Positions 5,643 to 61,830 of a DNA stretch of 64,000 nucleotides are shown here, one piece after another; the stretch's first letter is position 1, and the number at the start of each line of letters is the position of its first letter. Origin of the DNA: Vicinamibacterales bacterium (GTDB lineage: Bacteria > Acidobacteriota > Vicinamibacteria > Vicinamibacterales > UBA2999). Position numbers and translations under genes: made by a program. Location: the NCBI GenBank assembly GCA_036507475.1, contig DATCJA010000022.1:23093-87092 (forward strand), given 5' to 3'. Below the pieces are notes generated by a model, which saw only the letters and a program-made list of their open reading frames with translations, ran no database searches and was not told where the DNA came from.

Positions 5643-6707
5643 CTACTTTGCATTTTGCATCTTACATTTTGAATTCCGTTCCGTCGCCCAGCGGACATGT
5701 TCGCGAACCATTGGATCGCGAGCTGATGGGCGTTCGTCGCTCCCCTCGACAAGTGCGGCCACGGCTGCGGTCTGGTGAGTATTTCCGATGGCCACAGCGA
5801 GATTGCGGCGCAAGCCGATCAGTTTCGCGCGCGTCATCGCGCTTCCTTTCGTGAGCGCACGCAATTCGTTGTCGGACCGCAGCCAGAGATCGACAAGCCG
5901 CGGCATGTCGAGGCCGGGTCGCGGCTGCCATGCCGTCTCATCCGACTGGGGCGACGCTTGGTTGTACGGACAGACATCCTGGCAGATATCACACCCGTAC
6001 ACGTGGTTCCCCAGCATCGCGCGAAATTGTTCGGGAATTCCGCGCTTCAGCTCGATGGTCAGGTAGGACACACACCGCGTTGCGTCGAGCACACCAGGCT
6101 CGACCAGCGCTCCAGTAGGACACGCGTCGAGGCAACGGGTGCAGGAGCCGCACTGGTCGACACCGGGAGTGTCGGGCTCGAGCGGCAGCGTGCAGATGAT
6201 CTCGGACAGGAACAGCCAGGAACCGAGGTCCTGGTTGATGAGGCAGGTGTTCTTGCCGATCCATCCCATACCCGCGTGCTGCGCATAGACGCGCTCCTGC
6301 ACGGGGCCGGTATCAACATACGCGCGGGCATCGAAGGGGTGTGGTGACTCCGCACGCATCCATGACAACAGCAGGTCCAGCCGTGCCTTCAACACCTCGT
6401 GATAATCGTCACCCCAGGCATATCGGGAAATGGACGCGTTGTCATCGGCCGGTGCATCGGAATACGGGGGAACCGTGTTGTACACGGTGCCGGTCACGAT
6501 GACGCTCCGCGCGCCTGGCACGACGGCTCGCACGTCGGCTCGGCGATCGGCCGACCGTGCCATGTACGCCATTTCGCCGGCGTACCCCCGGCTCAGCCAT
6601 TCGCGAAGAAACGCCAGCTCGGGAAAGCTTTCAGCGGATGCAACTCCACACAGATCGAATCCGAGCTCGCGCGCTTTGGTCTTGATGGCGGCGGACGTCA
6701 GCGCCAT
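5643..6707 (-). CDS. queG: tRNA epoxyqueuosine(34) reductase
   Basis: 354-aa ORF. N-terminus AIKTKARELGFDLCGVA, two ferredoxin-type clusters (CGSCTRCLDACP, CDICQDVCP) and C-terminal HEAT-like repeats. The last 10 codons (NSKCKMQNAK) are encoded by a B-family repeat arm. Confidence 0.85.
   Translation of the reverse strand: MALTSAAIKTKARELGFDLCGVASAESFPELAFLREWLSRGYAGEMAYMARSADRRADVRAVVPGARSVIVTGTVYNTVPPYSDAPADDNASISRYAWGDDYHEVLKARLDLLLSWMRAESPHPFDARAYVDTGPVQERVYAQHAGMGWIGKNTCLINQDLGSWLFLSEIICTLPLEPDTPGVDQCGSCTRCLDACPTGALVEPGVLDATRCVSYLTIELKRGIPEQFRAMLGNHVYGCDICQDVCPYNQASPQSDETAWQPRPGLDMPRLVDLWLRSDNELRALTKGSAMTRAKLIGLRRNLAVAIGNTHQTAAVAALVEGSDERPSARDPMVREHVRWATERNSKCKMQNAK
5647..5675. repeat. 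B-family (TGCAAAA heptamer) periodic arm, single copy of the arm, inside the queG 3' end
   Basis: TTTGCATTTTGCATCTTACATTTTGAATT. Compare the 20826-20853 arm TTTGAATTTTGCATTTTGCATTTTGCAT. Confidence 0.7.
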
Positions 6708-13227: not shown

Positions 13228-13262
13228 CGCCTTCCTTCCCTCTCGATTTGCTCCCAAACGGG

Positions 13263-13322
13263 CCACGGAGTCACGGAGACACAGAGAAGATCTGGTTTCT
13301 CCGTGTCTCTGCGTCTCCGTGG
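13263..13322. repeat. A-family complete hairpin
   Basis: CCACGGAGTCACGGAGACACAGAGAA - GATCTGGT - TTCTCCGTGTCTCTGCGTCTCCGTGG, between pirin and acnA. Confidence 0.8.
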
Positions 13323-13340
13323 CCTGTCTGAGCCGAAAGC

Positions 13341-13370
13341 GTAGCGCGCAGGCTTAAGCCTGCGCGCTAC
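13341..13370 (-). terminator. perfect 13-bp hairpin enclosing the acnA stop codon
   Basis: GTAGCGCGCAGGC TTAA GCCTGCGCGCTAC. The acnA TAA lies in the 4-nt loop and only a weak U tract follows (GCUUUCGG). Confidence 0.4.
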
Positions 13371-16130: not shown

Positions 16131-16239
16131 GGCTTTAGGCTTTCGACTCTGGGCTCTTGGCCTCTCGTCTGGGCCTGTTCTGCGATGAGCTGCTTCGTCA
16201 CCGCCTAGAGCCTATAGCCCAGAGCCCAGAGCCTAGAGC
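16131..16239. repeat. C-family (CTAGAGCC/GGCTTTAG) periodic-arm hairpin
   Basis: Left arm GGCTTTAGGCTTTCGACTCTGGGCTCTTGGCC..., right arm GCCTAGAGCCTATAGCCCAGAGCCCAGAGCCTAGAGC. Lies between the ABC operon end and the acnA start. Confidence 0.75.
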
Positions 16240-20260: not shown

Positions 20261-20772
20261 CGGGTCTCCAGAATCGTGTGTACCTGGCGAACGAACGCCT
20301 CGACCGGCATGGGCCGGCGCGCCGAGTCGCCGCGGACGACACGTTCGGCGCCGGGCCCCTGGGCTGTGACCGGCGCGGGCGTCACGATTGCGCGTGCGGC
20401 GGCATCGCGTGTAACGCGGTATACGCCCTGACTCAAGCCGAACAACGTGGGTATCGCGGGCCCCCGCACGCGCAGGAAGACGACGACCTCGTCGCCCTGA
20501 GCGAACTCGGGGGCGCCGACGACCACCCGGCGATATCTGCCGACCTGCCCGTTAGGAACACAGAAGGTCACGTTTGCGCCGGCCGACGGAGAGCCCTTCA
20601 ACGCCTCGATCACCTGCACGGTCACGAGGCTCTCGATCGCCCGCTGCGGCCCCGTGAGCGCGGAACTCGTGTGAATCACCCGGCCGTGGACGATCATCCC
20701 CGCTTCGGTGACGACGGTCGTGAAATCGGCAGGAAGGAGGACGGTGGCTGAGGCGGGCCGGGCGATCGTCAT
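20257..20772 (-). CDS. hypothetical protein (possibly secreted if translation starts at 20853)
   Basis: The ORF track frame runs 20257..20853. The conservative start is ATG 20772 (MTIARPASATVLL). The extension to 20853 is encoded entirely by the B-family hairpin and reads like a signal peptide. The stop overlaps the matrixin gene start. Confidence 0.4.
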   Translation of the reverse strand: MTIARPASATVLLPADFTTVVTEAGMIVHGRVIHTSSALTGPQRAIESLVTVQVIEALKGSPSAGANVTFCVPNGQVGRYRRVVVGAPEFAQGDEVVVFLRVRGPAIPTLFGLSQGVYRVTRDAAARAIVTPAPVTAQGPGAERVVRGDSARRPMPVEAFVRQVHTILETR

Positions 20773-20853
20773 GCAAAATGCAAAATGCAAAATGCAAACA
20801 ACGCTGAAACACCTCCGATCCACCGTTTGAATTTTGCATTTTGCATTTTGCAT
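20771..20853. repeat. B-family complete hairpin
   Basis: 28-nt arms ATGCAAAATGCAAAATGCAAAATGCAAA and TTTGAATTTTGCATTTTGCATTTTGCAT are complementary at 27 of 28 positions, with a 27-nt spacer. Confidence 0.85.
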
Positions 20854-20874
20854 TAGCTGGATCCACCTCTCTCT

Positions 20875-22017
20875 CTATGCAGAACTCACGCCGCGCGGCG
20901 CTCGCCGCGCGACATCGAGGATGGCGTCAGCCGCGCGCCCGCTGGCACCCGGAGGTCCGAGCCGCTCGCAGACCGCTCTGAGCGCGTCGCGCGTGCGGGC
21001 ATGGCGCTCGGTGTCGGTCAGCAGCAAGATCGTCTCCTGAGCGACACGTTCAGGCGTGAAGTCGGTCTGAATCAGCTCAGGAACAACACGCCGGCCCGCC
21101 ACGAGATTCACCATCGCATACATGTCGACGCGGACGAACGGCTTTCCAAGCCGATACGTGAGTGGTGACAGCCGGTAGACCACGACCATGGGCTTCTCAT
21201 GGAGCGCCGCCTGCACCGTAGCCGTTCCGGACGCCGTAACCACGACGTCCGACGCCGCGAGCACGTCATCGGTGCGGTTGTCGACGACAACAACATCAGA
21301 AGGAAACGGCGAAAACAATTCGTCACCGAGATTCGGTGCGCGGGCTACCACAAACTGCACGCCGGGCAGTCGAGCGCGAATGAGCGGTATCGCCGCGGCC
21401 ATGTCGGGTGCGATGCGCCTGAGCTCGTTGGGACGGCTGCCAGGCAGCAGCGCAACCGTCGGTGCGTCAGGTCTCAGGCCGAGGTCGGAGAGAAAGGCGG
21501 ACCGCGGCTGCACAGCCCGCGCGAGATCCACAAGAGGATGTCCGACAAATTGGACTGGAACTCCGGCGCGTTCGTACACACCAGCTTCGAATGGAAAGAT
21601 GACCAGCACCTTGTCGACAAATCGCTTCATCGTTTCGATGCGTCGCGGCCGCCAGGCCCACAGCTGAGGGCTGACGTAGTAGACGATGGCGATGCCCAGA
21701 CGCCGCAGGGCCGCTATCAGGTGGAAATTGAAGCCGGAAAAATCGATCGCCACGAACACGTCCGGCCGCCGCGTCCGAGCGTCGTTCACGAGCCGGCGAT
21801 ACATCCGCCAGGATTGCGGCAACACCCGTACGATCTCGGTGAGCCCGGTCACGGTCAGGCCCGTGAAGTCGCCCGCCAACGTCGCCCCCGCTGCCTGCAG
21901 CCGTTGTCCGCCAAAACCGACGATTTCGACGGACGGCGCACGCGCATGCAGCTCCGCGGCCAGAGCGCCGGCGTACAGATCACCGGACGCCTCGCCGCAC
22001 GAAATCATGATTCGCAT
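20875..22017 (-). CDS. lpxB: lipid-A-disaccharide synthase
   Basis: 380-aa ORF. MRIMISCGEASGDLYAGALAAEL...VYYVSPQLWAWRPRRI...GHPLVD is the characteristic LpxB pattern. Confidence 0.9.
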   Translation of the reverse strand: MRIMISCGEASGDLYAGALAAELHARAPSVEIVGFGGQRLQAAGATLAGDFTGLTVTGLTEIVRVLPQSWRMYRRLVNDARTRRPDVFVAIDFSGFNFHLIAALRRLGIAIVYYVSPQLWAWRPRRIETMKRFVDKVLVIFPFEAGVYERAGVPVQFVGHPLVDLARAVQPRSAFLSDLGLRPDAPTVALLPGSRPNELRRIAPDMAAAIPLIRARLPGVQFVVARAPNLGDELFSPFPSDVVVVDNRTDDVLAASDVVVTASGTATVQAALHEKPMVVVYRLSPLTYRLGKPFVRVDMYAMVNLVAGRRVVPELIQTDFTPERVAQETILLLTDTERHARTRDALRAVCERLGPPGASGRAADAILDVARRAPRGVSSA

Positions 22018-22023
22018 CGCGCG

Positions 22024-24366
22024 CTACTGCGGCTTGATGAACAGCTTGTCGTCGAGAGGAGTGTTGAAGGCGACCTTGGTGAGCGTTCGCGAAAGGATGA
22101 GATTTCCACTCCGGCGCACATCGGCCCTGAACGGAACCTGCACACCGTCGACGGCGCGGTAGTCGAAAAACAGTTCTTCAGCCTCTATCGGCCGGCCGTC
22201 GGGTCCCGGCGTCTGAAAAATCTGGCGGACGACGAGCGCTCCGGCGTCCACGTACAGCTTGACCGGTGGCAGCTGCGCGCCGCTGATCTCGAGGACCTTG
22301 AGCACCTGTCCACCGCCCCCTTCTTCCGGGAGCAAGCGCATCGCCAGCCGTCCTTCAGCCGCGGCGACGAGCATCGGAATCATGTCGCGACGCACGCTGG
22401 CGGCAAAGTCGTCGCGCATTCCGGGTGGGGCCTCATGGACACCACCGGGATCGCGTGCCCAGGCGTGGCCACCGTTGTACACCTGCACGACCTCTGCGCC
22501 GGCCACAGTGGCATCGACGCGAAATTTGTCCGGGTAGACGACATAGGTGCGGGTCGACGACGCCAGCGGCTGGTCGCTCATGTGAAAGGTGGTGTCAGCT
22601 TCGGCAACGACCGTGCGCACCTTCTTCAGCACATCGAGGCCGCCTTTGGCGTCGATGACACGTTTCAGAACTGCACTAGCGTTCGGATCGCTCGGAACGT
22701 TCGGAGCGTTCGAAACGTTGGGGTTCACCTGCGACCTCGTGTACGCCAACTGACGCGAACGAAACGATTCGAACGACTCGAACGGCTTGAACGATCCGAA
22801 CGGTCCGAACGGTTCGTTCGTCTGTGCCCGCCGCGTCTCGCGCCTGAGCGTCGCCGACATCAGGTCGAGATCCTGGATGGGGATAATCTCGACATCAGAG
22901 AAACCCACGCGGCGCAGCTGTGGAACGAAGGTTGACGCATCCCCAACGAGGACGATCGACAGGCGATCCGCCCGGACATACTGGCGCGCGACGCGCTGGA
23001 TGTCATCGGGCGTCACCGCCTGCACGCGCTCCCGAAAAGTGCCGATCTCCTCGACCGGCAGCTCGTAAAACACGACGTTCAACACTTGCGTGGCAATGTC
23101 GTTTGGCGTCTCGATGGTCAGGGGAAAGCTGCCAGCGAGGTACGCCTGAGCGTCGGACAGTTCCCGTTCGAACACGCGTTCGCGCTGCAGCCGCGAGACT
23201 TCTTCCAGCGTCAGACGCAGCGTCTCACCCGTCGTCTCCGTGCGCGTGTTCGTCTCAGCCACGAAGTGACCGGACTGCTTGCGCGTTTCGGCATCGGCCT
23301 GGGCCCCGTACGTCAGCCCGCGCTCGGAACGCAGCACACGGTGCAGGCGGTTGGCGCCCTCGCCGCCAAGAATCTTCATGGCAAGATCGAAGGCCATGTA
23401 ATCGGGATGCTTCCTGGGAATAGCAAGCTGGCCGACGCGGATTTCCGTCTGCACCGCATCTGGCTTGTCCACGACCACGACCCGGCGCGTCGGTTGCGGC
23501 GGATCGACGACCTTCACCGCGGGCACTTCTGCACGAGGCCAACCATCAAACACTCGCTCGGCCGCGGCGAACGCCTCGTCGCTTGTCACGTCGCCGACGA
23601 CCGCGAGAACCATGTTGTTGGGAACGAAGTGGCGGCGGTGATACTCCTGCAGATCGGCTCGGGTGATCCCCGCAAGCGTCTCGGGCGTCCCACTATTCGG
23701 CAGCCCGTAGGGGTGAAACCCGTAAACCAGCCGCTCGAAGAGCACGCTGGCGATGTAGTCGGGGTCGTTGCCGCTGACCTGCAGACTGGAAATGGCCTGC
23801 TGCTTCTGACGCTCGATCTCTTCAGCAGCGAATGCGGGGTTGCGCACGACGTCCGACAGCATGTTCATTCCGACGCCGAACGAATCCTTCATCACGATCA
23901 CATTGACAAAGGTGAGGTCGGAACCGGATCCGGTGCCGAGCGCGCCGCCGATGAAATCGATCTCGTCCGCGATCTGCTCTGCCGATTTCGTGGTGGTCCC
24001 CTGGTCGAGCAGCGCGGCAGCCAGGCTGGCGACGCCCACCTTGCCGGGCGGATCCTGCACCGACCCGGTACGCACGAGCAGACGCATGCTCACGGCCGGC
24101 TGCTCATGATGCAGCACGGCAATGACCTGCATGCCGTTCTGCAGTGTGCGTACTTCATAGGGCGGGAATTTGACGTCCCGTGCGGACAGCGGCCGTGGGG
24201 GGCGTTCGGTCGGCCACAGAACGAACCGGCCGTCCGGCATGCGATCGACCTGCGCGCCCAGCAGGGCGCCGCACAGCAGCACCGCCAACATTCCAGCTCC
24301 CGACCTCCGAAGCAGCCGGGAGTACGCGCCATTCGAGCCAGCCGTCGGGAGTTGGGCGTTCATCAT
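22024..24366 (-). CDS. M16 peptidase, non-catalytic-type subunit, fused to a C-terminal about 270-aa LolA-like domain
   Basis: 780-aa ORF with M16 N- and C-domains but no HxxEH (the region reads GVASLAAALLDQGT). After about residue 500 comes a repeat-encoded linker (NEPFGPFGSFKPFESFESF...NPNVSNAPNVPSDPNA), then an extra domain. Confidence 0.75.
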   Translation of the reverse strand: MMNAQLPTAGSNGAYSRLLRRSGAGMLAVLLCGALLGAQVDRMPDGRFVLWPTERPPRPLSARDVKFPPYEVRTLQNGMQVIAVLHHEQPAVSMRLLVRTGSVQDPPGKVGVASLAAALLDQGTTTKSAEQIADEIDFIGGALGTGSGSDLTFVNVIVMKDSFGVGMNMLSDVVRNPAFAAEEIERQKQQAISSLQVSGNDPDYIASVLFERLVYGFHPYGLPNSGTPETLAGITRADLQEYHRRHFVPNNMVLAVVGDVTSDEAFAAAERVFDGWPRAEVPAVKVVDPPQPTRRVVVVDKPDAVQTEIRVGQLAIPRKHPDYMAFDLAMKILGGEGANRLHRVLRSERGLTYGAQADAETRKQSGHFVAETNTRTETTGETLRLTLEEVSRLQRERVFERELSDAQAYLAGSFPLTIETPNDIATQVLNVVFYELPVEEIGTFRERVQAVTPDDIQRVARQYVRADRLSIVLVGDASTFVPQLRRVGFSDVEIIPIQDLDLMSATLRRETRRAQTNEPFGPFGSFKPFESFESFRSRQLAYTRSQVNPNVSNAPNVPSDPNASAVLKRVIDAKGGLDVLKKVRTVVAEADTTFHMSDQPLASSTRTYVVYPDKFRVDATVAGAEVVQVYNGGHAWARDPGGVHEAPPGMRDDFAASVRRDMIPMLVAAAEGRLAMRLLPEEGGGGQVLKVLEISGAQLPPVKLYVDAGALVVRQIFQTPGPDGRPIEAEELFFDYRAVDGVQVPFRADVRRSGNLILSRTLTKVAFNTPLDDKLFIKPQ
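22679..22820. repeat. H-family (CGAACG, 9-nt period) inverted periodic repeat embedded in frame in the M16 gene
   Basis: Left arm (A/G)CGTTCGGA-type units at 22679-22726. Right arm CGA(N)TCGAA / CGGTCCGAA units at 22755-22820. Translated as ..NPNVSNAPNVPSDPNA.. and ..EPFGPFGSFKPFESFESF.. Confidence 0.75.
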
Positions 24367-34837: not shown

Positions 34838-35137
34838 ATGTCTTCGGGCCTTACTGTCGCCGACGTCGAGCGGATTGCCGCGCTTGCACACCTCGAGCTC
34901 ACCGAAGAAGAGAAAGCGCTCTTCACGCGACAGCTCGCCGACATCCTCGCGTACGCCCAGCAGGTCCAGGCCATCGACACGAGCGGTGTTCCAGCCACGG
35001 CGCACGTCCACGTCGACGAGCGCTCCGAACGCGAGGATGAACTCCGACCCTCGCTCCCGCTCGAGGACGTGCTCGCCAACGCGCCTGATGCGTCGGCGGA
35101 GGCTGGCCTGTTCCGTGTCCCGCGCGTCATTGGCTGA
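34838..35137 (+). CDS. gatC: Asp-tRNA(Asn)/Glu-tRNA(Gln) amidotransferase subunit C
   Basis: The ORF track frame starts at 34820. ATG 34838 gives [51 protein letters not shown]. Confidence 0.85.
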
Positions 35138-35138
35138 G

Positions 35139-36617
35139 ATGCTGGAATCGAGCGCCCGTGCCATCCGCGACGAAGTCGCCGCCGGCCGCGTGTCCGCCGT
35201 CGACGTGTGCCGCACGTTTCTCGGGCGGCTCGACACCGTCAATGGAGCGCTGAACGCGTTCAATCTGATCGCGGCGGATCGCGCGTTGGCGCGAGCCGCG
35301 GAGCTCGATCGGCGCCGCGCAGCAGGTGAAGCACCGGGACCGCTGGCAGGAGTGCCGATCGCGATCAAGGACAACCTGTGCGTGCGCGGCATGCCGACCA
35401 CCGCCTCGTCGCGCATCCTCGAACGATTCGTGCCTCCCTACGACGCGACGGTCGTGCGGCGCCTCGAGAAGGCGGGAGCGATCATCGTCGGCAAGACGAA
35501 CTGTGACGAGTTCGGGATGGGCTCGTCGAACGAGAACTCCGCGTTCGGCCCGGTCCGTAATCCGTGGGCGACGGATCGCACGCCCGGCGGCTCGAGCGGC
35601 GGCTCGGCGGCGGCCGTCGCGGCCAGGTGCGTGCCGCTCGCCCTTGGGTCGGACACCGGTGGGTCCATCCGGCAGCCCGCCGCCTTCTGCGGCGTAGTGG
35701 GCCTGAAGCCAACGTATGGCCGCGTGTCCCGATACGGCCTTCTCGCCTTTGCCTCGTCACTCGATCAGATTGGGCCGATCGCCCGCACAGCAGCGGACGC
35801 CGCCCTGGCGCTCACGGTGCTCGCAGGCGCCGACTCGGCGGATGCGACGTCGTCGCGTCGGGCGGTTCCTGATTTCACAGCCGCCCTGACCGGCGATGTC
35901 GGAGGCGTCCGCATTGGAGTCCCCCGCACGTTTCTCGCCGCCGGCGTCGACGAAGGCGTCCGTGGCGCATTCGAAGCGGCGCTCGACACAATGCGGAATG
36001 CCGGGGCAACGCTCGTCGATATCGGTCTGCCGCATGCGAAGTACGCAATCCCCGTGTATTACTTGGTGGCGACGGCTGAGGCCAGTTCGAACTTGGCACG
36101 GTACGACGGAGTCAGGTATGGCCATCGTTCATCCCACGACAAGGAACAGGGACTCAAAGCGATGTACTCCCGCACGCGCGACGAAGGCTTTGGTGCCGAG
36201 GTCAAACGTCGCATCATGCTGGGCACGTACGTGCTGAGCGCGGGTTATTACGACGCGTTTTACCTGAAGGCGCAGCAGGTGCGGACGCTATTGCGGAATG
36301 ATTACCAAAAGGCCTTTGAAAAGGTCGACGTCGTGGCGATGCCCACCAGTCCCATACCACCATTTCGCCTGGGCGAAAAAACGGACGACCCGCTCCAGAT
36401 GTATCTGGCCGACGTGTTCACCGTGAGCGCGCCCCTCGCGGGACTGCCGGCGATCAGCACCCCGTGCGGCTTCGTCGAACGATCCGAACGCTCCGAACGT
36501 CTTCCAGTCGGGCTTCAGCTCACCGGTCGGATGTTCGACGAATCAATGCTGCTGCGTGTGGCTGACGCGTTCGAGCGGACGACGGACTGGCACACGCAGA
36601 CTCCGCCACCTATTTGA
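35139..36617 (+). CDS. gatA: Asp-tRNA(Asn)/Glu-tRNA(Gln) amidotransferase subunit A
   Basis: The ORF track frame runs 34875..36617. I set the start at ATG 35139, 1 nt after the gatC stop. Amidase signature [13 protein letters not shown]...[12 protein letters not shown]. Contains a repeat-derived VERSERSER insert near the C-terminus. Confidence 0.95.
36475..36501. repeat. H-family-like 9-nt periodic repeat inside gatA
   Basis: TCGAACGATCCGAACGCTCCGAACGTC, translated ERSERSER. Confidence 0.6.
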
Positions 36618-37757: not shown

Positions 37758-37783
37758 AAGAGGTGAGACTACATCAAACGAGC

Positions 37784-37824
37784 GGGATCCGGGACCCGGG
37801 ACCTGGGATCCCGGATCCCGGTCC
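37784..37824. repeat. periodic palindromic element (GGGATCC/GGGACCC heptamers)
   Basis: GGGATCCGGGACCCGGGACCTGGGATCCCGGATCCCGGTCC, between the rpoZ start and the hsp20 stop. Confidence 0.7.
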
Positions 37825-43395: not shown

Positions 43396-44310
43396 GTGGA
43401 TTCCTCGTTCAACGCATACATCCAATCGCGCCGCGCAGAAGTTAACGCCGCGTTGGCCGCCGCCCTCCCTGCTCCGCCCGACTGCCCCGCCGTGGTCGCC
43501 GACGCGATGCGGTACAGCATCACGGCCGGCGGAAAACGGCTGCGGCCGATCCTGTGCTTGGCCAGTGCCGAGGCAGTGGGCGGCGACCGCTCGGTTGCAA
43601 TGCCCGCGGCGTGCGCGATCGAATTGATCCACACCTATTCGCTGATTCACGACGATCTGCCCGCCATGGACAACGACACGATGCGGCGCGGGCAGCCGAC
43701 GCTGCACGTCGTTGTAGGCGAAGGGATGGCCATTCTCGCCGGCGACGGCCTGCTCACTGAGGCGTTCGCGCTGATGGCACGTGCGCCCGAGAGCAGCGAC
43801 CCCATCACGCATTCACGCAAGCTTCGCGTCATTGGCGTGGTCGCCCGCGCCGCCGGCCCAAGCGGCATGGTTGGCGGCCAGGCTCTCGACCTCGCAGGCA
43901 GCGCGGCTTCTGACGAGGCGCTGCCGACCAACGCCGAGCGGCTTCGTGCAGTGCATGCCAAGAAGACCGGGGCGCTGATTCGTGCCGCCGCCATCGCCGG
44001 CGCCATCATGGGCGGCGGCGACGATGGTGTCCTCGCCACGATCGACGCGGCGGCGACGGAGTTCGGCCTTGCGTTTCAAATCATCGACGACATCCTCGAT
44101 GTCGAAGGCGCCCCTGCGACACTGGGCAAGACCGTCGGGAAGGATGCGGCTGCGGGTAAGCCGACGTATCCCGCCCTGTACGGGCTCGACACGGCACGCC
44201 GGATGGCAGCCGAGTGCGTGGAGCGGGCAGAACGCAGTCTTCGCTCGGCGCGTCTTGCGGATTCACAACTGATGGGCATCGGCCAATGGATAGTGGATAG
44301 ATCGAATTGA
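43396..44310 (+). CDS. ispA: polyprenyl (farnesyl/geranylgeranyl) diphosphate synthase
   Basis: 304-aa ORF with a GTG start. First DDxxD (LIHDDLPAMDNDTMRRG) and second (FQIIDDILD) motifs. Confidence 0.85.
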   Translation: MDSSFNAYIQSRRAEVNAALAAALPAPPDCPAVVADAMRYSITAGGKRLRPILCLASAEAVGGDRSVAMPAACAIELIHTYSLIHDDLPAMDNDTMRRGQPTLHVVVGEGMAILAGDGLLTEAFALMARAPESSDPITHSRKLRVIGVVARAAGPSGMVGGQALDLAGSAASDEALPTNAERLRAVHAKKTGALIRAAAIAGAIMGGGDDGVLATIDAAATEFGLAFQIIDDILDVEGAPATLGKTVGKDAAAGKPTYPALYGLDTARRMAAECVERAERSLRSARLADSQLMGIGQWIVDRSN

Positions 44311-44396
44311 CGAATTGACGGATTTGATTGACGACTTGGATTTGCGAATGGCCAACCCTCAATCCGTAGATCCGTAGATCCGTAAATTCGTCAATG
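44304..44396. repeat. periodic-arm hairpin (GAATTGAC / CCGTAGAT octamers)
   Basis: Left GAATTGACGAATTGACGGATTTGATTGACGACTTGGATTTGCG, right CAATCCGTAGATCCGTAGATCCGTAAATTCGTCAATG. Overlaps the ispA stop (44308-44310) and the tlyA ATG (44394). Confidence 0.75.
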
Positions 44397-53883: not shown

Positions 53884-53960
53884 AGGCGCGTAGCTCAGTT
53901 GGTTAGAGCGCCTCCCTGACACGGAGGAGGTCAGTGGTTCGAGTCCACCCGCGCCTACCA
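53884..53960 (+). tRNA. tRNA-Val (anticodon GAC), CCA encoded
   Basis: Manual cloverleaf fold. Acceptor AGGCGCG/CGCGCCT; D arm GCTC-AGTTGGTTA-GAGC; anticodon arm CCTCC-CTGACAC-GGAGG; T arm AGTGG-TTCGAGT-CCACC; discriminator A plus CCA. Confidence 0.93.
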
Positions 53961-56754: not shown

Positions 56755-56829
56755 TTAGGCTTTCGGCTGTAGGCTTTGGCCAGAACCCAGAGTCGCCTTA
56801 AGCCTAGAGCCCAAAGCCTAGAGCCCAAA
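56755..56829. repeat. C-family periodic-arm hairpin (infC|rpmI spacer)
   Basis: TTAGGCTTTCGGCTGTAGGCTTTGGCC ... GCCTTAAGCCTAGAGCCCAAAGCCTAGAGCCCAAA. Shares units with 16131-16239. Confidence 0.75.
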
Positions 56830-57037: not shown

Positions 57038-57107
57038 AAATGCAAAATGCAGGATGCAAAATGCAAACACTGCATCGTTTGAAATTATGCATTTTGAATT
57101 TTGAATT
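57038..57107. repeat. B-family periodic-arm hairpin (rpmI|rplT spacer)
   Basis: AAATGCAAAATGCAGGATGCAAAATGCAAA ... TTTGAAATTATGCATTTTGAATTTTGAATT. Confidence 0.7.
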
Positions 57108-57494: not shown

Positions 57495-57584
57495 TCAATG
57501 CACAAGTCACAAGGCACAAAGCACACGTCACAAGGAACGGTGCGTTGTGACTTGAGCCCTGTGCCTTGTGACTTGTGACTTGAT
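57494..57584. repeat. periodic-arm hairpin (CACAAGT heptamers; rplT|pheS spacer)
   Basis: The left arm contains CACAAGTCACAAGGCACA. The right arm contains its exact complement TGTGCCTTGTGACTTGTG. Confidence 0.8.
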
Positions 57585-61158: not shown

Positions 61159-61230
61159 TGTCTTTGGTCCCTGGTCTTTGGTCTTCGGTGAGCACGAGAG
61201 AGAAAAGACTAGAGACCAAAGACCAGACAT
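61158..61230. repeat. periodic-arm hairpin (GTCTTTG heptamers; zapB-like|zapA spacer)
   Basis: ATGTCTTTGGTCCCTGGTCTTTGGTCTTCGG ... AGACTAGAGACCAAAGACCAGACAT. Confidence 0.75.
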
Positions 61231-61637: not shown

Positions 61638-61643
61638 TCGTAA

Positions 61644-61830
61644 AGCTCCTGCTTTGCTCGTGATGGTTCGGAGGCTCGTCTGAGCCAACGTCGTCACCCA
61701 AGTGAGCCGCGGGGTCGCGTGTTGTGCATGCCTCTGTGGTGAGGAAGCCTGAAACGCGGCCGATAACAGCGGTTCCACCTGCTTTAGCAGGTTCATTCGA
61801 CCTCCCCACACGGCAAAGCGGGACTGATTC
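61644..61830 (+). ncRNA. ssrS: 6S RNA candidate
   Basis: Closing stem TCCTGCTTTGC (61647-61657) / GCAAAGCGGGA (61813-61823). Second stem CGTG..GGAGG / CCTCC..CACG. Apical stem GCCGCG/CGCGGC. The bubble strands resemble E. coli 6S as I remember it: CUGAGCC at the 5' bubble, CACCUG-CUUUAG-CAGGUUCA versus CACCUUGAACCAAGGGUUCA at the 3' bubble hairpin, and a ..AUUCCC 3' end. The position after zapA matches the known zapA-ssrS synteny. Ends are approximate. Confidence 0.65.

Follow-up and report, generated by a model that had tools for sequence, protein, structure and literature searches.

In a 64,000-nucleotide (nt) stretch of contig DATCJA010000022.1 from a Vicinamibacterales bacterium (the window), a gene encoding a protein of 780 amino acids (aa) contains two inverted arrays with a period of 9 nt. 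They lie at positions 22675-22812, and both are in frame. The gene fuses a subunit of the M16 peptidase family to a C-terminal domain with a predicted LolA-like fold, and the arrays occupy the linker between the two parts. We propose, at a probability of about 0.6, that they are an inverted pair of 9-bp microsatellites that arose in situ and evolve by slippage in a disordered, insertion-tolerant linker of this fusion of an M16B subunit with a LolA-like domain. The entity that propagates would be the DNA unit, which reads YCGTTCGRR on the coding strand in the first array (arm 1) and its reverse complement in the second (arm 2). The first-pass annotation of this stretch had described an inverted periodic repeat in frame in an M16 gene, and that description holds: the period-9 arrays and their inverted pairing are real, and the translations it gave are exact.

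In the direction of translation, arm 1 encodes PFG PFG SFK PFE SFE SFR S from codon units of the CCG TTC GGA type, and arm 2 encodes NP NVS NAP NVP SDP NAS from units of the CCG AAC GTT type. Tandem Repeats Finder returned period-9 arrays at 22680-22719 (consensus CGTTCGGAA) and at 22763-22813 (AACGACTCG / GAACGGTCC). As an inverted repeat, the arms pair over 40 nt at 78% complementarity, or over 52 nt at 71%. They can also be aligned as a weak direct repeat (72%), because the unit itself is nearly palindromic. The inverted relation is nevertheless the better fit, since CGAACG, the core hexamer of arm 2, is the exact reverse complement of CGTTCG, that of arm 1. The pattern CGTTCGNNNCGTTCG, with at most one mismatch, occurs 16 times in the window when 2.3 +/- 1.6 occurrences are expected, and 8 of the 16 are in this element. 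The element also has the makings of a variable-number tandem repeat: a short unit repeated head to tail, a unit length that is a multiple of three, and a confirmed codon register. Orthologs lacking the C-terminal part stop at query residues 505-526, mostly 505-511, and the LolA-superfamily fold begins at about residue 565. The element therefore lies at the domain junction. This is where it had been placed before, next to an additional domain of about 270 aa; the position was right and the size was not, the extra part being a domain of 216 aa preceded by a linker of about 55 aa.

The number of units changes in single steps between very close relatives. Locus L110 (22,352 nt), from a strain-level relative, differs from window positions 12024-34366 by 15 single-nucleotide polymorphisms and a single indel. 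That indel is one 9-nt CGTTCGGAT unit of arm 1, extra in L110 and mapping at about 22802, and three spacer hairpins within the same stretch remained unchanged while the 9-nt array slipped. A protein in the same 90% cluster as the window protein differs from it by two substitutions and one extra arm 1 tripeptide. Loci L066 and L069, which have 100% identical LolA domains, are also one 9-nt unit apart, and L067 and L073, with 97% identical domains, have 0/5 and 11/9 units in their arms. When the window was aligned with L001, L002, and L027, length differences were found only in the arms. Whole-unit differences in copy number between such close relatives (the window and L110, L066 and L069) are those of a variable-number tandem repeat.

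Over longer distances the arms come and go. We extracted 75 distinct orthologous linkers, from LDLxxxxL to AKGGL, and counted an arm as present when it had at least 2 units. In many of these linkers the order is the same: [S/P]F[G/E] repeats, then the motif AY[TS]xxQ[VA]NPR, then PN[V/A/G/D] repeats. Copy numbers range from 0 to 12 in arm 1 and from 0 to 11 in arm 2. Of the 75 linkers, 23 have both arms and another 23 have none; 11 have only arm 1 and 18 only arm 2. The arm-less linkers are spread widely over the domain tree. The earlier expectation for orthologs, that the FxS/NxP region would be missing or would differ in length, is thus borne out, and the linker is not the conserved, non-repetitive one that had been named as the contrary outcome. 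The central motif AY[TS]xxQ[VA]NPR is found in linkers with and without arms, and it stands beside the signal peptide in standalone LolA-like proteins (LAYTSAQAAPRA in P0035, AQVAPRAG in P0054). The "loop" of the element is therefore host sequence, the N terminus of the LolA-like protein. Arm 1 is at the fusion joint and arm 2 within the N-terminal tail of the LolA-like part.

The linker is a permissive site that collects hairpin-forming DNA: it can be as short as 57 aa or as long as 112 aa, and in relatives the slot is also taken by unrelated hairpin elements. The linkers of L042 and L045 have hairpins resembling repetitive extragenic palindromes (CTTCCGCCTGAAGGCGGAAG) in frame, and those of L053, L060, L066, and L069 have a nested GCGGACC...GGTCCGC hairpin, also in frame. 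Loci L046 and L053 have identical domains, and one of them has an xFG array while the other has an unrelated nested hairpin in the arm 1 slot. The L078 linker (1726-1816) carries an in-frame hairpin with a period of 7 nt, AACTCCC x4 and TTGGGAG x4, lying wholly upstream of the AYT motif. Periodic hairpins of the type otherwise seen in spacers can hence also sit in frame in genes. This qualifies the idea that a period of 9 keeps the arms in frame, which is correct for changes in copy number and incorrect as a requirement for residing within a gene.

What is conserved in these arrays is the DNA and not the peptide. We pooled unit profiles over the 75 linkers (162 arm 1 units and 222 arm 2 units), which gave the consensus YCG TTC GRR for arm 1 and CCG AAC GNY for arm 2. 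The synonymous positions 3 and 6 of the unit are fixed at 95-99% in arm 1 and at 91-95% in arm 2, whereas background codon usage predicts 40-83%. Among the core codons, TCG reaches 97% (40% in the background) and TTC 99% (79%). The amino-acid-changing positions 1 (S/P/T/A) and 8 (G/E/D/K/R) vary freely. The codons ending at position 9 are also unusual. In arm 1, GGA makes up 62% in the repeat against 13% in the background, and GGC 2% against 56%. In arm 2, GTT makes up 47% against 8%, GCT 46% against 5%, and GGT 56% against 11%. Units thus end at position 9 in a purine in arm 1 but in a pyrimidine in arm 2, and in the stem these two bases lie opposite one another.

These profiles bear directly on the possibility that selection acts on the protein, with [S/P]FG/E serving as a cohesive FG-type segment, PNx as a stiff Pro/Asn spacer, and the complementarity being incidental to preferred codons. 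Part of the pattern could be accounted for in this way. Across deeply diverged lineages the repeats keep their position, order, and reading frame. Moreover, CCG, TCG, TTC, and AAC are preferred codons anyway, so that complementary cores would largely follow from the peptides. However, rare codons dominate position 9, where GGC is nearly excluded, and the sites that change amino acids are more variable than the synonymous ones of the core. The linkers without either arm (23/75), the close relatives that are many units apart, and the unrelated peptides that one DNA unit yields in GatA and LpxB (SER, RSD, PNV; see below) are also difficult to reconcile with a selected peptide. We consider this explanation improbable.

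The inverted arrangement raises the question of whether the hairpin itself matters. As single-stranded DNA, the region folds with z = -4.0, and 0 of 200 dinucleotide shuffles fold as well. For RNA, z is -1.9 against dinucleotide shuffles, -2.8 against synonymous recodings, and -2.5 against recodings in which the arms are kept uniform. The minimum-energy fold of the window sequence is predicted to have 27 inter-arm base pairs and no intra-arm pairs. Eighteen loci have 3 or more units in each arm, and in every one of them the native linker RNA exceeds its synonymous recodings in stability (mean z -2.4). Against recodings with each arm uniform the mean z of these loci is -1.96, and their predicted fold consists almost wholly of inter-arm pairs. 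Across the 75 linkers, the mean z is -2.16 when both arms are present, -0.59 with arm 1 only, +0.47 with arm 2 only, and +0.17 with neither; the coding sequence of the LolA domain, used as a control, gives -0.10. Excess stability is limited to two-arm linkers, and the hairpin follows from the presence of both arms. The gene has no conserved need for it, because most linkers (about two-thirds) show no excess structure.

Could the stem between the two domain-coding parts still be selected in the mRNA, for example for ribosome pausing, for protection of the upstream mRNA, or as a processing site? The stability of the two-arm linkers through inter-arm pairs would fit such a role, as would the purine/pyrimidine rule at position 9, which tolerates G:U pairs, and the presence of several unrelated hairpin types in the same slot of relatives. 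Against it, the majority of linkers do without the structure, arm lengths are ill matched (12/6, 4/11, 8/1), and the codon bias at position 9 neither needs a partner arm nor covaries with it (see below). Terminator and Rfam scans of the window returned no terminator-like site, U-tract, or Rfam family at the repeat. A functional mRNA hairpin is, in our opinion, quite improbable.

The same unit is found in two other genes. A second in-frame array is present in a surface loop of GatA (Table 1), where relatives have 0, 1, 2, or 5 [S/P]ER units. In the L055 locus, a loop of LpxB contains an in-frame insert in which CGTTCGGNT units, read as RS[D/G], are followed by PNV repeats. This insert folds as a hairpin and is of the same xFG/PNV 9-nt type as the M16 linker. 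At the same place in LpxB, L048 has a 12-unit CCGAACGTC array (2239-2344, 97% matches). Beyond that array the LpxB homology of L048 stops and an unrelated minus-strand open reading frame (ORF) begins; either L048 is rearranged, or the contig was wrongly joined across the repeat. The length of the LpxB loop among relatives is 31-67 aa, and its inserts include low-complexity or palindrome-like sequences of the VGAGFSR / PAKAGP type. Both genes already contain native seeds of the unit: the ELFEPF of LpxB is encoded by TTCGAGCCGTTCG, and the F-x-ER of GatA contains GAACG. The unit is thus present in frame in unrelated genes and in different frames, read as [S/P]F[G/E] and PNx, as (S/P)ER, or as RS[D/G] and PNV. 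These three genes (the M16 linker, LpxB, and GatA) are the only ones carrying it in the approximately 530 kb examined. A search for other host proteins with an idealised FG+PN repeat peptide gave only 3 weak matches. The candidate host P0122 was rejected as an unrelated AT-rich marine repeat.

This distribution is reminiscent of Rickettsia palindromic elements (RPEs), and the first-pass annotation had suggested an in-frame insertion of that kind. On such a view, a periodic-arm palindrome would have inserted as selfish DNA into the linker and elsewhere, and its translation would be tolerated or co-opted. Some of the observations do describe the slot in these terms. The arm 1/arm 2 pair turns up again in L055, inserted in frame into the loop of LpxB, with the 12-unit array of L048 at the same place and a related array in GatA. 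In P0123, both peptide arms occur in a different setting, upstream of Flp pilin genes. Between identical flanking domains, L046 and L053 have different hairpins, and the spacer-type hairpin of L078 and the hairpins of L042 lie in frame in the same slot. For the 9-nt element the idea is weaker. The arms flank the host motif AY[TS]xxQ[VA]NPR and have no loop of their own, which is not what a discrete insertion looks like. Single arms occur in 29/75 linkers, and changes proceed by single 9-nt units. We saw no conserved full-length consensus, shared loop, or shared flank; only the 9-nt unit is common to the M16 linker, LpxB, and GatA. In the latter two, native sequences supply seeds, and three genes in about 530 kb is a small number. 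The suggestion is therefore partly supported, and as an explanation of the arrays we regard it as rather unlikely.

The remaining possibility concerns the origin of the fusion. An AlphaFold2 model of residues 565-780 has a mean predicted local distance difference test score (pLDDT) of 94.5. A Foldseek search of the PDB with this model matched 4z48 (DUF1329; E 1.6e-10), 9tp6 (LolA3; 4.9e-10), and 3buu (LolA superfamily; 3.3e-9), together with LolA/LolB structures. The LolA/LolB-type fold is an unclosed beta-barrel with a helical plug. Sequence searches of this domain against Pfam and NCBIfam gave no match, and the predicted structure confirms the LolA-like character that had been ascribed to it. 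The fused frame is unbroken in 10 of the 17 related genome loci and also in 80 metagenome loci that match across the junction (fused architecture in L001-9, L014, and L027-L106). With about 90 independent Vicinamibacterales contigs, the fusion is real and not an assembly artefact, which disposes of a concern raised in the first-pass annotation.

Three architectures are found at this locus. In the window the order is lpxD - X - M16a - M16b::LolA-like - lpxB, where X is a conserved ORF. The same order without the LolA-like part occurs in L012, L013, and L015-17. In the third, lpxD - X - standalone LolA-like gene - lpxB, the LolA-like gene has its own signal peptide and there are no M16 genes. 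The short M16b genes of L010 (5670-5936) and L011 (5553-5774) have a remnant of the FG repeat and the ending ..KLFxRP of the long form, and their sequences suggest an internal deletion of the LolA-like domain. In L025 (3300-3620) and L024 (832-5092), which are contigs of long-read metagenome-assembled genomes (MAGs), frameshifts near arm 1 interrupt the fused gene; in L025, the TGA that ends the M16 frame overlaps the GTG of QVNP. These splits are probably assembly indel errors, although they may be real. As unfused intermediates, P0027 and P0072 were rejected for being frameshift-fragmented genes in long-read MAGs, and P0013 and P0021 for being cut by contig ends.

It had also been proposed that adjacent M16 and LolA-like genes were once separated by a spacer hairpin, which became the linker when the two genes fused; the step would have been loss of the stop codon. 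In favour of this, periodic hairpins abound in the spacers of this genome. L019, L023, and L107 have a standalone LolA-like gene with its own signal peptide between X and lpxB, the locus in question, and arm 1 occupies exactly the place that a signal peptide would have had. The proposal nonetheless fares poorly. The standalone genes are found only in loci devoid of any M16 gene. An M16b stop followed by a spacer, with or without a hairpin, and a separate LolA-like start was not seen in any of the approximately 100 loci examined. The loop is coding, and both it and arm 2 lie inside sequence homologous to the N terminus of the mature LolA-like protein. Arm-less linkers are widespread on the tree, and the arms turn over far faster than the age of the fusion. 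In a neighbour-joining tree of the LolA-like domains, the three standalone forms make one clade; this tree is effectively unrooted and is silent on which architecture came first. A fossil intergenic hairpin is, on balance, highly improbable.

We therefore return to slippage in situ. The unit is free of stop codons in all six frames and is three codons long, so that replication slippage could lengthen or shorten the arrays and leave the gene intact. This would be why the 9-nt type, and not the 7-8 nt type of the spacers, is the long-lived and variable one inside genes. The outcome in the protein would be a tether of variable length, made of [S/P]F[G/E] repeats, AYTxxQVNPR, and PN[V/A/G/D] repeats, that joins the peptidase subunit to the LolA-like domain. 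Arm 2 is most likely an inverted copy of arm 1, made by intrastrand or fold-back template switching where the repeat is prone to form hairpins. We infer this from the reverse-complementary cores, the two-arm insert in LpxB, and the general habit of this genome of forming periodic-arm hairpins. After the inverted copying, the arms would have slipped largely independently. The long hairpin that two-arm mRNA or single-stranded DNA can form is most likely a by-product, because the gene does not require it, and it may promote more slippage.

Several points weigh against this interpretation. Slippage and template switching are deduced from patterns. The purine/pyrimidine bias at position 9 persists in single-arm loci, where no partner arm is needed, and there is no locus-by-locus covariation between A at position 9 of arm 1 and T at position 9 of arm 2 (rho 0.01). 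The complementarity may therefore reflect the near-palindrome within each unit (TTCGRA, AACGNT) and not a maintained pairing between the arms. Differences in the length of the whole linker are often not multiples of 9, so that other indels or replacements must also act. This account does not explain the presence of the unit in three genes, given that CGTTCG is not over-represented in the window (118 observed, 117.6 expected), and copying between loci may be an alternative. Finally, the arrays persist over lineages whose LolA-like domains are only ~50% identical, which requires continual regeneration or selection.

The host gene has further features worth describing. The 780-aa protein is an exact database match to HEY5616797.1, annotated as "pitrilysin family protein [Vicinamibacterales bacterium]". 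Pfam recognizes PF00675 at residues 85-202 and PF05193 at residues 234-408 of this protein, and no domain past residue 408. Its upstream neighbour, a gene for another M16 protein of 448 aa, overlaps it by 4 nt (stop of the neighbour, start of the fused gene). M16 and M16_C domains are encoded by both genes, and the HxxEH zinc motif occurs as HLFEH in the 448-aa protein and is absent from the 780-aa one. From these sequences, the two look like the active and the inactive subunit of an M16B heterodimer, with the extra C-terminal part on the subunit predicted to be inactive. All three architectures keep ORF X, with lpxD on one side and the M16 or LolA-like genes on the other, and the ORF has no Pfam match on record in relatives. 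The only Rfam matches above the gathering threshold in the window are a 6S RNA (61643-61827 (+), 72 bits) and one tRNA (53884-53957 (+)).

Table 1. Location of the repeat element, its host gene, and related features. Positions refer to the window unless preceded by the name of another locus.
Feature	Position	Strand	Description
Fused gene, 780 aa	22024..24366	(-)	ORF and translation; from N to C terminus: signal-peptide-like N terminus, M16 subunit without HxxEH, repeat linker, LolA-like domain
Arm 1	22756..22812	(-)	aa 519-537 = PFGPFGSFKPFESFESFRS; 6-7 units YCG TTC GRR, read [S/P]-F-[G/E/K/R]; core CGTTCG
Loop	22726..22755	(-)	aa 538-547 = RQLAYTRSQV; 30 nt, coding, unrepeated
Arm 2	22675..22725	(-)	aa 548-564 = NPNVSNAPNVPSDPNAS; 4-5 units CCG AAC GNY, read [P/S]-N-[V/A/D]; core CGAACG
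Predicted LolA-superfamily domain	22027..22674	(-)	aa 565-780; AlphaFold2 and Foldseek
Partner M16 subunit, 448 aa	24363..25709	(-)	coordinates, sequence, Pfam
ORF X, 304 aa	25732-26646	(-)	ends in ..TGFRLVSR
lpxB	20875..22017		downstream of the fused gene
LpxB loop	21259-21357; L055 3124-3315; L048 2178-2344		between QFVVA..APNLxDxLFxPF and RTDDVL
Second in-frame array, GatA	36476-36499	(+)	TCCGAACGN x3, read SERSERSER; surface loop PCGF...LPVGLQ; ORF 34875..36617 (+)
Standalone LolA-like genes	L019 4001-4789; L023 4001-4768; L107 124-897		between X and lpxB
Spacer periodic-arm hairpins	5647-5675, 13244-13341, 16139-16239, 20771-20854, 37783-37821, 44303-44384, 56800-56829, 57038-57107, 57496-57582, 61160-61225		

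How does this element compare with known systems? In-frame intragenic tandem repeats that make variable disordered regions have been described, for example in Borg elements (PMC9879509). Like the repeats of Borgs, the arrays described here have head-to-tail units whose length is a multiple of 3, change rapidly in copy number between close relatives, are conserved at the nucleotide level, and encode a low-complexity, presumably disordered product (PMC9879509). Unlike them, they are two reverse-complementary arrays, inverted around a conserved host motif and able to form a long hairpin. One protein thereby contains two different tripeptide repeats that come from a single DNA unit. RPEs, each a discrete element of ~150 bp, belong to defined families and encode a conserved peptide (PMC10969869). 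They share with our element palindromic DNA in frame in ordinary genes at permissive sites, translation as an extra peptide, presence or absence among orthologs, and the same DNA in different frames in different genes (PMC10969869). Here, in contrast, nothing beyond the 9-nt unit is shared; an arm can occur without its partner and gain or lose one unit at a time, and what lies between the arms is host sequence. Palindromic amphipathic repeat coding elements (PARCELs) encode a 25-residue amphipathic domain, have dyad symmetry within each repeat, and spread by horizontal transfer (PMC2996958). They too are variable-number tandem repeats inside ORFs with dyad symmetry in the coding DNA (PMC2996958), but in our case a unit encodes 3 residues, and it is the two separate arrays that are symmetric to each other.

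The closest relatives of the element may be the hairpins in the spacers of the same genome, which also consist of two inverted arrays of a short unit, and of which the L078 linker has a 7-nt example in frame. The spacer hairpins differ in having units of 7-8 nt, arms that are 82-100% complementary, short loops, and an intergenic location; the M16 element has a 9-nt unit, arms that are 71-78% complementary, a coding loop of 30 nt, and an intragenic location. The spacer units include ATGCAAA, CACGGAGA, GCCTAGA, CACAAGG, GTCTTTG, and CGAATTGA, among others. Unit types recur at several loci of the window and in other genomes, and arms of the CACGGAGA type are also found after lpxB in L005 and L049. 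The orthologous spacer after lpxB has a different hairpin unit in different relatives. We found no Rfam family for the periodic-arm spacer hairpins and no description of them in the literature on Acidobacteriota, and this wider class of hairpins may be the more novel object. It is conceivable, and we put it forward only tentatively, that a process specific to the Vicinamibacterales builds hairpins with tandem-array arms, either by hairpin-templated repeat expansion or through a dedicated enzyme. If so, it would leave periodic hairpins of 7-8 nt units in spacers, whereas in genes only stop-free, three-codon units would survive and slip. New fast-evolving disordered linkers and loops would thereby be written into the M16-LolA linker, the LpxB loop, and the GatA loop.

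These results have consequences for the biology of this lineage, an abundant but poorly studied soil group. They provide a clean natural case in which a short DNA unit, and not a peptide, is propagated within genes, the same nine bases being read as FG-, PN-, SER-, or RS-type repeats depending on strand and frame. They link such intragenic repeats to the apparently undescribed periodic-arm hairpins in the spacers of the same genomes. In practice, the region is a marker for strains, and errors of gene calling and assembly are likely there in MAGs. Linker and loop sites of envelope-biogenesis genes (M16-LolA, LpxB) appear to be places where hairpin-forming repeats land and grow, and slippage of the unit would adjust the length of the tether between the domains over times as short as those that separate strains.

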